Of a DNA stretch of 64,000 nt, positions 18,607 to 63,794 are shown piece after piece. Made by a program: the position numbers and the translations under genes. The stretch is from contig CAYTYR010000001.1 in the NCBI GenBank assembly GCA_964441745.1, positions 194,754-258,753 of the forward strand, read 5' to 3'. Below the pieces are notes generated by a model that did not search any database, was not told the DNA's origin, and saw nothing but the letters and a program-made list of their open reading frames with translations. Each line of letters starts with the position of its first letter. The stretch's first letter is position 1. The stretch is from an uncultured Clostridia bacterium (GTDB lineage Bacteria > CAYTYR01 > UBA6262).

Positions 18607-18702
18607 TACATACCAAAATTCAAACCCTTGCGTTATTGGATGACAGTCACAAGGGTTCGAATTGGTACTATTTGGCTTGCCAGCCGTAGCTTTAGCGAAG
18701 GC

Positions 18703-18792
18703 TGGCGGAGGCGGAAGGATTCGAACCTTCGGTCCAGTTACCCAGACTCCGGTTTTCAAGACCGGTGCACTCAACCGCTATGCGACGCCTCC
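18703..18792 (-). tRNA. tRNA-Ser(UGA)
   Basis: GGAGGCG acceptor, CCGGT-CTTGAAA-ACCGG anticodon arm, long variable arm, GGTTCGAATCC, encoded CCA. Confidence 0.95.
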
Positions 18793-18804
18793 ATTATTTC
18801 TTTT

Positions 18805-19042
18805 CTGGTTTTTACCCCCTTGAAGTCTACGACTTCATACAGGGAGTACAGGCAAGACCGGTGCACTCAACCGCTATGCGACGCCTCCAACTCCACTGTG
18901 TAATATCTAATTTCCGTTCATCTATATTTGAAACCCGGCCGGTTTTTACCCCCTTGAAGTCTACGACTTCATACAGGGAGTACAGGCAAGACCGGTGCAC
19001 TCAACCGCGGAGTTTATCCGCCAATAGGCGGACGACTCCTCC
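18805..19042 (-). repeat. two 5'-half copies of tRNA-Ser(UGA), each with a 40-nt hairpin in the anticodon loop
   Basis: Copies at 18805-18888 and 18939-19042, with identical inserts at 18813-18852 and 18947-18986. Confidence 0.9.
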
Positions 19043-61576: not shown

Positions 61577-61742
61577 GGGGTTAGCCTGACTTTCCATAGT
61601 CAAAGGATGTTAAAATTCTTTTTGACGAAACCGTGAAGTTATGGTATATATCAGTGTTACCTAGTGGATACTTTTTGGACACTAGAGGTAAAAATAGACA
61701 TCACGGTCAAAAGCTAGATTTGAAATTTCTCTTATATATAAA

Positions 61743-61810
61743 GCGCCCTTAGCTCAGTTTCAGCCTGAGGCTGATCCGCCTCTGGCGGAGGATTAGAGCG
61801 ACTGACTACG
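61743..61810 (+). repeat. 5'-half copy of tRNA-Arg(ACG) with hairpin insert in the D-loop
   Basis: GCGCCCTTAGCTCAGTT-[insert]-GGATTAGAGCGACTGACTACG, ending right after the anticodon. Confidence 0.9.
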
Positions 61811-61844
61811 TTGACACTAGTAATATTCAGAAATGATAACACAT

Positions 61845-61922
61845 GCGCCCTTAGCTCAGTTGGATTAGAGCGACTGACTACGAATCAGTAGGCCACAGGT
61901 TCGAATCCTGTAGGGCGCGCCA
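61845..61922 (+). tRNA. tRNA-Arg(ACG)
   Basis: Cloverleaf, CTGA-CTACGAA-TCAG, GGTTCGAATCC, CCA. Confidence 0.96.
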
Positions 61923-62045
61923 TTTACTCTCCTAGAATTTATTATTAAGTAAAAAGTAAATGGCCCGCCGACGCTTATTGGCGGGCAAACCACAGATTAG
62001 GAAAAACAGATTACACAGATTAAAGCAAAATCCGCTAAATATTTT

Positions 62046-62480
62046 ATGGCTGAGGCGCTGAAAGAAGCGAAAAAAGCAGCGCTTAAAAACGAAGTACCAA
62101 TAGGCGCTGTAGTAGTGCATAAAAACAAAATAATTGGCCGTGGCCATAACCTCTCGATCAAGAATAACAATCCGACAGCCCATGCGGAAGTATTAGCCTT
62201 AGGGCAGGCAGCAAAAAAGATCAAGAATTATCGTCTCGTAGATGCGGATATGTATGTGACCATAGAACCATGCGCCATGTGCGCGGGAGCGATGGTTTGG
62301 GCCAGGATCAGGAATTTATATTTCGGAGCCAAGGATGCAAAAGCCGGGGCCTGTGGCAGCGTGTTTAATATTACTAATAATAAGAAACTGAATCACCGCA
62401 TCAATATACATCAGGGTATTCTGGAAGCAGAGAGCCGTCGGCTTATCCAGGAGTTCTTTAAAAAGAAAAGAAAAAAGTAA
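62046..62480 (+). CDS. tadA: tRNA adenosine-34 deaminase
   Basis: EVPIGAV, PTAHAE, EPCAMC, LNH. Confidence 0.95.
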   Translation: MAEALKEAKKAALKNEVPIGAVVVHKNKIIGRGHNLSIKNNNPTAHAEVLALGQAAKKIKNYRLVDADMYVTIEPCAMCAGAMVWARIRNLYFGAKDAKAGACGSVFNITNNKKLNHRINIHQGILEAESRRLIQEFFKKKRKK

Positions 62481-62481
62481 T

Positions 62482-62708
62482 GGAAGGGTGGCTCCCGATG
62501 TTAATCGGGACTCCCTGCGGTCGCGAGATATAGGGTAGAGCCAGTCTCGCCTGTCCTCCGTGTATGAAGCCGAAGGCTTCAACGGGGGGAAAACTGGTCG
62601 TGATGGAGGCGTCGCATAGTGGTTGCCCGCCGTAGGCGGGTAACAGTGCATCCGGTATCGCCTGTCCTCCCTGTATTGAAGTCGAAGACTTCAAGGGAGG
62701 GAAAACCG
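62482..62708 (+). repeat. two degenerate tRNA-Ser 5'-halves with anticodon-loop hairpin inserts
   Basis: Halves at 62482-62598 and 62605-62708, with inserts at 62550-62589 and 62661-62701. Confidence 0.85.
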
Positions 62709-62723
62709 AAAATAATATGTGTT

Positions 62724-62811
62724 GGAAGGGTGGCCGAGCTGGTCTAAGGCGCCAGTCTCGAAAACTGGTATGGTCGTAAGGCCATCGTGAGTTCGAATCT
62801 CACCCCTTCCG
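62724..62811 (+). tRNA. tRNA-Ser(CGA), CCA not encoded
   Basis: CCAGT-CTCGAAA-ACTGG, long variable arm, GTTCGAATC. Confidence 0.93.
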
Positions 62812-63093
62812 TATTAAATAATTAGTCTGGCAAAAAAATTTAATGTTCTTAACCTTGTCTGCTTGTAAAAATGCGTATAAGTATAGAGAAGCAAGGGGAT
62901 GACCCGCCAAAAAGATCGGCGGGCAGGCAGTGAGTTCTTTTAGATGTCCGGCAAAAAAGTGTTTTTTTGCCGGGTCAACAAGAGGAAGGGGTTCAGCGAG
63001 CCCGTTCTGTGTGGCGAGCGACGACGAAACAGCCCGCCAAAGTTCGTTGGCGGGCCCTTGTGGAGCGAAACGAGCTTGCGTAGTGAAGCGACT

Positions 63094-63183
63094 GGAGAGA
63101 TGGCCGAGCGGTTGAAGGCGTACGCCTGGAGAGCGTATGTGGGGGTGACCTCACCCAGGGTTCGAATCCCTGTCTCTCCGCCA
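63094..63183 (+). tRNA. tRNA-Ser(GGA)
   Basis: TACGC-CTGGAGA-GCGTA, long variable arm, GGTTCGAATCC, CCA. Confidence 0.93.
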
Positions 63184-63794
63184 TTACTTCACATTTTTCT
63201 CCCCCTGTCTTCAGAAACTCCCCAAACCCCGCTCAAAGGGGCTACCGCCCCTATTGCGTTCGCTCGGCTGATTTGCCAGCAAATCAAGCCGCCGGCTCAC
63301 TATTACCCCTTGGGAAGTTTCCCAAAATCTCCAAATGTGAAAAAACGCGGAGCTTTTTAACCGAAATTCGAACTTTCTTCGAAGAAAATCCTTCGACTTA
63401 GCCCTTCGATAAACTCAGGGTTCGCTCAGGACAGGTCCCTTCGGAAAGCTCTTAGAAAGTGAGTTGTCATGCTCCCTCCTACGGAGCCTGTGCGCTCACA
63501 TCTCGCGCCCGTTGCTGGCTAAGTGCTCCTTCTTCGTCGCACCAGCAACCCTCTTTTCCGTTCGCTCCTCCTTCGACTACGCTCAGGACTTCGCTCTCTT
63601 GGTTCGCCCCCGCTCTGCGGGGTCGTAGGGCTTAAGTACTAAGACATGGTTCCGGTCAAAAATTCCTTCCCCACAAAAATTATTTTTACAATATTAGCTT
63701 CCAAACAGGTTTGTTTTGGTGTATAATAGTTTTAGAATAATACATATATTACAATACTTGTATTATAATATCATTTATTTAGGAAGTCAAGGAA

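Follow-up and report, generated by a model that had tools for sequence, protein, structure and literature searches.

Why should 5' halves of serine tRNA genes, each plugged by a small hairpin within the anticodon, stand in a row in front of an intact tRNA-Ser gene? This question is raised by positions 62482-62811 of the 64,000-nucleotide (nt) stretch of Clostridia DNA analysed here (the window), where two such stubs lie between tadA, which codes for the tRNA adenosine deaminase, and an intact tRNA-Ser(CGA), and again by a twin array at 18.8 kb that precedes tRNA-Ser(UGA). A preliminary description had ascribed both arrays to a mini-element system aimed at tRNA anticodons, with independent insertions at a specific position and an exchange of tRNA 5' halves. 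We find that the hairpin is a lineage-specific family of palindromic repeats that resembles repetitive extragenic palindromic (REP) sequences and is not specific for tRNAs. We consider it somewhat probable that this REP-like mobile hairpin strikes the anticodon loops of tRNA-Ser and that dead copies persist beside the working one, where they lose their 3' halves and gather further hairpins.

All nine genomes of this small phylum in our collection were compared, namely the genome under study (G000), the genomes G002, G003, G004, G005 and G006 of the same genus, G001 of the sister genus, and G007 and G008 of another family. tRNA genes were called with ARAGORN and Rfam, and partial copies were identified by a BLAST search of all 42 tRNAs against G000. 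The working tRNA-Ser(NGA) genes fall into four bodies, named alpha, beta, gamma and delta, which are only 48-70% alike while two beta genes are 92% alike; dead stubs are called after their body. For the hairpin we aligned 21 copies: G000 supplied 14 of 'type 1', the window and G001 three each, and contig 9 a single Ser-like one, while the second, identical hairpin at 18.8 kb was omitted. The covariance model made from this alignment (R1) was run on the nine genomes at E<=0.01 and gave 157 matches in total, 40 of them in G000, where tallies of gene context and strand cover the 38 with listed places.

Anatomy of the two arrays

The tadA open reading frame (ORF; 62046-62480, plus strand) has its stop codon 1 nt before stub 1 (62482-62549, plus strand), and relatives with a TadA of 77-78% amino acid identity carry an intact tRNA-Ser(CGA) 1 nt past the tadA stop. 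Stub 1 has the alpha body, as has the intact gene behind the array, and its start matches the position of the intact gene in G002 and G005. Its acceptor 5' strand (62482-62492, GGAAGGGTGGC) is identical to the opening 11 nt of the tRNA-Ser(CGA) behind the array, with which the anticodon arm is shared as well, confirming that this half is a copy of that gene. The D arm has been swapped for 47 unrelated and hairpin-rich nt (62493-62539), including a TCCCGAT..ATCGGGA hairpin, and the anticodon 5' strand with the loop through G35 follows at 62540-62549 (GCCAGTCTCG). At this point a hairpin of 40 nt is found (62550-62589, plus strand; R1 E value 3e-9, folding energy -20.9 kcal/mol, z -3.7), which belongs to the Ser-type subfamily of the CCTGT-headed REP-like family. 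Comparison with the intact gene identifies the next bases as the remaining loop and the matching anticodon 3' strand AAAACTGG, followed by TCGTGAT (together 62590-62604, plus strand); judging from the bases, this last heptamer could plausibly be derived from the end of the variable arm and the start of the T stem of the alpha tRNA via two short deletions.

Stub 2 (62605-62660, plus strand) has the beta body of the tRNA-Ser(UGA) type but reads CGA with its loop ..TATCG. Its first bases match tRNA-Ser(UGA) with 20 of 21 in BLAST and its intact counterpart, a working beta-body tRNA-Ser(CGA), exists in the sister genus (G001), so that its earlier assignment was correct. A 20-nt CCCGCC..GGCGGG hairpin is inserted into this stub at 62625-62644, and the 41-nt Ser-type hairpin behind the stub (62661-62701, plus strand; R1 E value 6e-10, -20.1 kcal/mol, z -4.0) is only one indel apart from the hairpin of the alpha stub in G001. 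The anticodon 3' strand AAAACCG and a 15-nt A/T-rich spacer (62702-62723, plus strand) lead to the intact alpha-body tRNA-Ser(CGA) at 62724-62811 (plus strand), called by ARAGORN and by Rfam with 58.6 bits (ends at 62723/62724 and 62811/62812). It is the sole CGA gene in the tRNA list of the genome and identical in sequence to the gene of G002. An assembly artefact is unlikely, because one contig, assembled independently from the probable source run, spans 62000-63183 with 0 differences and homologous arrays are present in two other genomes; contigs from three other sequencing runs matched tRNA and tadA pieces only.

The twin array lies on the minus strand beside an ORF of the BON type, in the order serS, BON, array and tRNA. 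Its stub A (18987-19042) is a beta 5' half in which a TCCGCC..GGCGGA hairpin, absent in G002, replaces part of the D loop. The Ser-type hairpin of this stub (18947-18986) is identical to that of G002 in 40 of 40 positions, and the following 18889-18946 hold the anticodon 3' strand, with CCGGGT and TTCAAAT as remnants of variable arm and T loop, and a spacer that has the leader AGTGGAGTT at its end. Stub B (18793-18888) is absent from G002 and consists of a 36-nt beta 5' half, a hairpin (18852-18813), AAAACC and a 14-nt A-rich spacer, directly followed by the intact beta-body tRNA-Ser(UGA) at 18703-18792 (ARAGORN, Rfam). The halves of this array were recovered by the tRNA BLAST with 36/36 (E 4e-14) and 22/22 (E 8e-6) identities. 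The hairpins of stubs A and B (18986-18947 and 18852-18813) are identical and occupy the same anticodon-loop position, and the hairpin of stub B is clearly a copy of that of stub A. In both arrays the position is G35^A36, as the preliminary description had noted. As a possible origin of the 14-nt spacer before tRNA-Ser(UGA) we considered the A-rich 3' end of tadA, with which it shares 10 bases, and rejected it; the spacer also somewhat resembles the sequence around the BON stop codon of relatives, and as low-complexity sequence it allows no inference in either case.

When this block is compared between G000 and G002, 95 of 97 positions agree in the stub A hairpin plus spacer and 89 of 90 in the tRNA, against 244 of 306 for the adjacent BON ORF. 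From stub A to the CCA end (~330 nt) we counted four substitutions and three hairpin-associated indels in G000, the latter being stub B with its 97 nt, a hairpin of 31 nt past the CCA and the D-loop replacement, which also lengthens a palindrome. On these counts hairpin events are about as frequent as point changes in the block, and its high identity would reflect either constraint or recent exchange. The 31-nt insert (18672-18702, minus strand), right behind the CCA of tRNA-Ser(UGA) and missing in G002, carries a GCCAGCC..GGCTGGC hairpin. The 53-nt trailer hairpin beyond it is 53/53 identical in G002 and also kept in G004.

Both loci differ among the relatives. At tadA, G002 and G005 have the intact alpha tRNA-Ser(CGA) exactly at the start of stub 1, and at the BON locus G005 has no stub and G002 has one, equal to stub A. 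The BON locus of G004 is without a stub and its tadA was not matched. As in G008 from the other family tadA is followed by an alpha-type CGA gene and then by Ser(GGA), the alpha body beside tadA is ancestral. G000 itself shows the order dead alpha, dead beta and intact alpha at tadA and the two stubs A and B at BON. The sister genus G001, whose TadA is 68% identical to that of G000, has at tadA a beta remnant and an alpha stub, both hairpin-bearing, ahead of the working beta-body tRNA-Ser(CGA), and at BON a hairpin-bearing beta(UGA) stub followed by a working gamma-body tRNA-Ser(UGA). In G003 the tRNA-Ser(CGA) has the delta body, and an alpha-like 3' relic comes 14 nt after it; the contig starts inside the gene and the BON locus gave no match. 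This contig (G003:C124:1-130, locus L108) has the delta gene at its very start and then the last ~22 nt of the alpha-like tRNA-Ser; the array may have broken it, and tadA was not found in that assembly.

Altogether seven distinct units are present in these genomes, four in G000 (stub A in common with G002) and three in G001. The anticodon 3' strand of the own body is kept in 7/7 units and relics of the variable arm or T loop in two, and therefore the stubs are decayed whole genes. Stub and successor have different bodies in 4/7 units, and among the genomes arrays as well as tRNA-Ser bodies turn over. The proposed exchange of 5' halves is contradicted by these data, since each stub has retained its own anticodon 3' strand, all working genes have matching 5' and 3' halves, and an acceptor strand of alpha, beta or gamma cannot stand in for that of another body.

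A REP-like hairpin family and its insertion

The array hairpins fold at -18 to -21 kcal/mol with z values of -3.7 to -4.0, and 0 of 200 shuffled sequences folded as well. Members of the family share one build: the head is CCTGT, the lower stem C-rich/G-rich and the upper stem variable, and a bulge of 3-4 nt lies on the 5' side. Across the 21 aligned copies pairing is kept in 95.9% of the cells compared to 76.2% after shuffling (reached by 0 of 500 shuffles), double changes occur in 9 of the 14 pairs, and the covariation is 0.473 versus 0.148 for shuffled alignments and <=0.137 with slid partners. The compensatory stem changes reported for the window are thus real, and the structure of the family is conserved.

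Within the genus the number of R1 matches swings widely, with 40 in G000, 10 in G002, 40 in G003, 6 in G004, 3 in G005 and 54 in G006, and outside it drops to 3 in the sister genus (G001), 1 weak match in G007 and 0 in G008. A dedicated tRNA-anticodon-targeted system is refuted by the places of these copies, as 34 of the 38 listed matches in G000 lie outside the tRNA-Ser arrays, mostly in short intergenic gaps, and only 4 are array copies. Among these 34, we counted 28 in gaps between ORFs, 26 between co-directional ORFs (19 antisense, 7 sense) and 2 between convergent ones, and 6 within ORFs of a crude ORF call. All 3 matches of G001, on the other hand, sit in tRNA-Ser stubs, and in three genomes and two tRNA bodies the loop position taken by the Ser-type subfamily is the same. 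Other small hairpins (TCCGCC..GGCGGA, CCCGCC..GGCGGG, TCAGCC..GGCTGA and TCCACC..GGTGGA) are also strongly over-represented in G000 against control hexamers. A longer type-2 hairpin (CCTGTCCCCGCG..CAGGGG, ~47 nt; for example G000 C2:47042, C5:66337 and C10:3043) always lies mid-tract in tandem repeats of 7-8 nt, the unit of which varies by site.

How the hairpin inserts can be read from an orthologous gap. Here G005 and G003 have the uninterrupted sequence AATCTG(T/G)GTAATC, and G000 carries the hairpin exactly between ..TG and TAATC; G002 bears a different hairpin at the identical point and G004 lacks the tract. No target duplication is visible at this gap, and intact and filled anticodon loops agree with that. 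The flanks of 22 full-length copies show a junction bias: T at -2, G at -1 and A at +3 are each found in 16 copies, and A at +1 in 17. Hence the hairpin is a clean insertion after ..YG and before A-rich sequence without target duplication. Among the 42 tRNAs the motif YYGAWAA occurs in only three, Ser-UGA, Ser-CGA and Phe-GAA, and always at the anticodon loop. The insert sits at G35^A36 in the alpha-type (CCAGT/ACTGG) as well as in the beta-type (CCGGT/ACCGG) arm, and because the bodies differ while the position does not, this spot must have been hit by two insertions or more. The earlier claim of independent, position-specific insertion therefore holds in part: two bodies were hit at one spot, but the junction rule, ..TG^hairpin^A-rich, is shared by the whole family.

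No described family could be matched, as had been suspected from the sequence. Rfam, searched with the whole window at the gathering threshold and with 61700-63300 at E<=1, returned tRNAs and sub-threshold chance rows only, and the literature, supplements not covered, gave neither a matching family nor a description of hairpin-plugged bacterial tRNA stubs. A scan of species genomes with the Ser-type pattern found 8 loci, of which 2 are relatives used here and the other 6 are without an ARAGORN tRNA. With a loop-plus-head pattern at least 120 metagenome loci were obtained, and none of the 120 examined has the hairpin in a tRNA-Ser context, this pattern being too loose to show absence, and two hairpin patterns gave 7 loci in viral contigs, all of them chance matches without a hairpin.

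The closest likeness is to REP sequences and REPINs with their REP-associated tyrosine transposases (RAYT; Y1, HUH), with which the family shares the short imperfect palindrome (40-41 nt here), the conserved tag at one end, tens of intergenic copies, a copy number uneven among relatives (0 to 54) and a strand bias. The available portion of PMC3733652 describes GTAG- and CGTC-tagged superfamilies and some REP families that lie inside small target palindromes. The anticodon stem-loop is such a palindrome. However, the invariant head is CCTGT in our case, neither GTAG nor CGTC is present at either end, no Y1 gene is flanked by this hairpin and one subfamily is located in tRNA-Ser anticodon loops. 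Elements of the insertion sequence (IS) family IS200/IS605 insert without duplication 3' of a short motif and in a single orientation, their hairpins are recognised by structure, and their orientation bias is linked to replication. Gene-less derivatives of them would share with our family the lack of target duplication and the insertion beside a short conserved motif, although here a single 40-nt hairpin is the whole insert instead of left- and right-end hairpins, the tRNA copies are on the minority strand and no link to an enzyme was found.

Rickettsia palindromic elements and the intervening-sequence hairpins of 23S rRNA are also small palindromic inserts at loops and are tolerated in working genes, in contrast to the insert-bearing tRNA copies described here, every one of which is truncated and dead. 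The former are mentioned in the same portion of PMC3733652. Dead partial tRNAs beside a gene of the same isotype, and switches of the tRNA body, are further known from integration and from tRNA-dependent lysogeny, to go by the accessible parts of PMC9897764 and PMC10865867. Our arrays differ from these in lacking an element, an integrase and a displaced 3' fragment, and in that the 5' parts are 7-52 nt away from the gene and hairpin-plugged. Tandem trnF pseudogene arrays of plastids likewise consist of partial tRNA copies beside a working gene, but, so far as the accessible part of PMC3786074 goes, without hairpin insert or body switching.

Origin of the arrays

The reading that we favour starts from the anticodon loop of tRNA-Ser(UGA/CGA), which as CU-YG^AAAA in a stem-loop would fit the junction preference of the hairpin. 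The Ser-type subfamily would have landed there at least two times, in two tRNA bodies. Insertion would destroy the gene and so could persist only with a second working tRNA-Ser alongside, whether this arose by tandem duplication or came in from elsewhere. The dead copy would then shed its 3' half, perhaps under selection, as a chargeable tRNA-Ser with a ruined anticodon is predicted to be harmful, and would keep gaining other small hairpins. What remains would be the 5' stub, the hairpin and the own anticodon 3' strand ahead of the working gene, and repeated rounds would lead to arrays and to the turnover of tRNA-Ser bodies. The working copy itself may have come from tandem duplication, from reuse of a paralogue (beta UGA to CGA) or by import.

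Several observations weigh against this reading. The loose junction rule is insufficient, because the genome of G000 has 7,788 YGAWAA sites and still 4 of the 40 matches are in tRNA-Ser loops, and 3 of 3 in G001. Extra specificity, either by stem-loop context or by recognition through the subfamily, or else local copying of units, is needed in addition. An empty-to-filled pair for the hairpin alone within a tRNA was not seen among the genomes, which differ by whole units. In 7/7 units the 5' half is kept and the 3' half lost upstream of a working gene, which is not expected of random decay, and the alternation of bodies (dead alpha, dead beta, alpha in G000; dead beta, dead alpha, beta in G001) needs a tandem alpha-beta ancestor or repeated replacement. 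The high identity of the stub A hairpin and spacer compared to the BON ORF is unexpected for junk unless it was recently transferred. By GC skew the four tRNA copies lie on the opposite strand: the CCTGT strand is on the C-rich strand in 27 of the 34 listed non-tRNA copies and in 0 of 4 tRNA copies, with gene orientation and skew being confounded. Finally, the R1 hairpin was not found in the 220-nt flanks of any of the 8 Y1_Tnp (HUH transposase) matches in G000, where other repeats are located. A stronger version, which we regard as a tentative possibility at best, would have the Ser subfamily homing to G35^A36 and each kill coupled, by its own single-strand chemistry or by provoked repair, to a fresh downstream tRNA-Ser, with serial replacement, re-assignment of the anticodon and co-option of the stub-hairpin as a leader.

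Two other explanations appear unlikely to us, each to a similar degree. An element carrying a tRNA-Ser could have integrated without rebuilding the resident gene and decayed to its indispensable tRNA, with the hairpin as a later coloniser or end scar. Integration is the textbook source of tRNA fragments, and tRNA-dependent lysogeny destroys the resident gene and puts the incoming tRNA in its place (available parts of PMC9897764 and PMC10865867, respectively). The successors of different body would agree with this, gamma behind dead beta and beta behind dead alpha in G001 and alpha behind dead beta in G000, as would the gamma and delta bodies, being only 48-70% like any resident tRNA-Ser, and the alpha-like 3' relic directly after delta in G003, where the upstream side is not assembled. 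The spacers between stub and gene, however, measure 7-52 nt and hold no ORF, integrase or element DNA, a displaced Ser 3' half was not found in G000 by BLAST, and none of the 7 viral-contig loci has a real hairpin. Furthermore, stub B of G000 shares its body with the gene behind it, and the own 3' strand after the hairpin in 7/7 units implies an insertion into an intact stem-loop and not an attachment-site junction. Alternatively, stub, hairpin and spacer may be a selected leader acting in the transcript, with a cut by RNase P at the tRNA 5' end, after which the stable hairpin would cap the mRNA upstream and shield its 3' end in the way of E. coli REP hairpins. Such a function would account for the stub A hairpin and spacer being as conserved as the tRNA and more than the neighbouring ORF, for the compensatory changes that preserve the stem and for the single indel between the hairpins of stub 2 and of the G001 alpha stub despite 68% TadA identity. 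Both tRNAs also lie directly behind an ORF, and a consensus scan for promoters and terminators gave nothing in either array, with no sigma-70-like promoter within them and counts at or below shuffle level. Against a leader, arrays are absent in G005 (both loci), G004 (BON) and G002 (tadA), the 5' stubs decay and take up other hairpins, and recent exchange of the tRNA block could explain the conservation equally well.

A cassette of hairpin, spacer and fresh 5' half that recombines at G35^A36 and rebuilds the gene, for which circles made by a single-strand transposase could serve, is very improbable in our opinion, even if it reproduces the order of 5' half, hairpin, 3' strand, spacer, 5' half and gene rest. 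Its prediction of clean loss through the reverse reaction agrees with G002 and G005, where an intact gene occupies that very place, and it would fit the G000 BON array, in which all units have one body. We reject a cassette with a replacement 5' half for the mixed arrays (alpha/beta at tadA, beta/gamma at the G001 BON locus), whose acceptor stems are unpairable so that a swap would kill the gene; the unit spacers at 18.8 kb differ as well (52 nt versus 14 nt), and we know of no such circles or enzyme. That the hairpin is a tRNA intron excised from the RNA, or that split halves are joined in trans, is hardly conceivable. Its place in the anticodon loop and the many partial tRNA copies of this organism might suggest it, but no unit has a 3' half, ARAGORN and Rfam call intact genes only and each of the anticodons is served by an intact gene next to the stubs. 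Moreover, 40 nt are far too small for a group I intron, no Rfam intron family matched, and the site 35/36 is inside the anticodon and not at 37/38.

Possible movers, other tRNA fragments and significance

The flanks of the Y1 genes hold GGGGTCAG-type repeats or TCCACC hairpins, and GGGGTCAG resembles the terminal inverted repeat motif given for 'TIRYT' genes in the portion of PMC3733652 mentioned above. Y1 genes of 261-331 amino acids (aa) with a C-terminal extension are located at C8:5396-6343, C1:182.9 kb, C1:186.8 kb and C22:25815-26810, those at C8 and C22 being flanked by GGGGTCAG and complement repeats with GACCCCATTGTTTACG-type runs downstream at C8. A Y1 gene of 217 aa at C8:48198-48851 has AACCGTCTTTCCACC..GGTGGAA hairpins on both sides and is IS200-like. 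Y1 is present in 7/7 genomes of the bacterial family with the hairpin versus 0/2 of the other, and R1 in 7/7 versus 1 weak match in 1/2, these genomes being kin and hence not independent. The S23p cassettes (7 genes in G000) are not framed by the array hairpin; several or most of them lie in inverted runs of short tandem repeats, and one S23p gene has a type-2 hairpin nearby.

Dead tRNA pieces in G000 extend beyond serine. Partial copies of Arg(ACG), Val(GAC), Cys(GCA) (two), Pro(CGG), Glu(CUC) and Leu(CAA) tRNAs adjoin their genes, and all but that of Leu carry small TCCGCC-, CCCGCC- or TCAGCC-type hairpins at, or replacing, D-, anticodon- or T-loop positions. For Glu(CUC) two 3' ends lie within a 64-nt tandem repeat made of the tRNA 3' end and a hairpin. 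The sites for Glu, Cys (two), Val, Leu and Pro are C1:87750-87940, C5:35565-35700, C5:36040-36270, C5:53214-53231 and C19:9600-9730. The dead 5' part of tRNA-Arg(ACG) at 61743-61810 (plus strand) precedes the tRNA-Arg(ACG) gene (61845-61922) and is kept in G002 (L009 2234-2300). Its D loop contains a double hairpin (TCAGCC..GGCTGA and TCCGCC..GGCGGA), as does the dead tRNA-Val(GAC) copy on contig 5, and it stops just past the anticodon, followed by TTGACA, 17 nt and TGATAA.

TadA deaminates A34 of tRNA-Arg(ACG), and tadA is placed directly downstream of this tRNA gene in the window (61845-62480) as well as in 7/7 related loci (L009-L013, L021, L022). These seven loci came from metagenome-assembled genomes labelled Elusimicrobia, Omnitrophota or Endomicrobiales, in which tRNA-Ser or transfer-messenger RNA is usually found behind tadA. 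Along C1, the GC skew of 20-kb bins stays at about -0.10 to -0.14 as far as 220 kb, and is +0.02 at 220-240 kb and about +0.09 near 257 kb. Window positions ~25000-55000 (C1 ~220-250 kb) are probably the replication origin, and genes diverge from the switch in skew.

In summary, REP-like hairpins are usually viewed as harmless intergenic litter, and here one family recurs in the anticodons of serine tRNAs. The stubs can mislead tRNA annotation and break assemblies. At the same time they leave a readable fossil record of the death and replacement of tRNA genes in one genus, including a UGA-type body reused as CGA, and thus a natural system for the choice of stem-loop loops as targets by palindromes and for the survival of essential single-copy tRNA genes.

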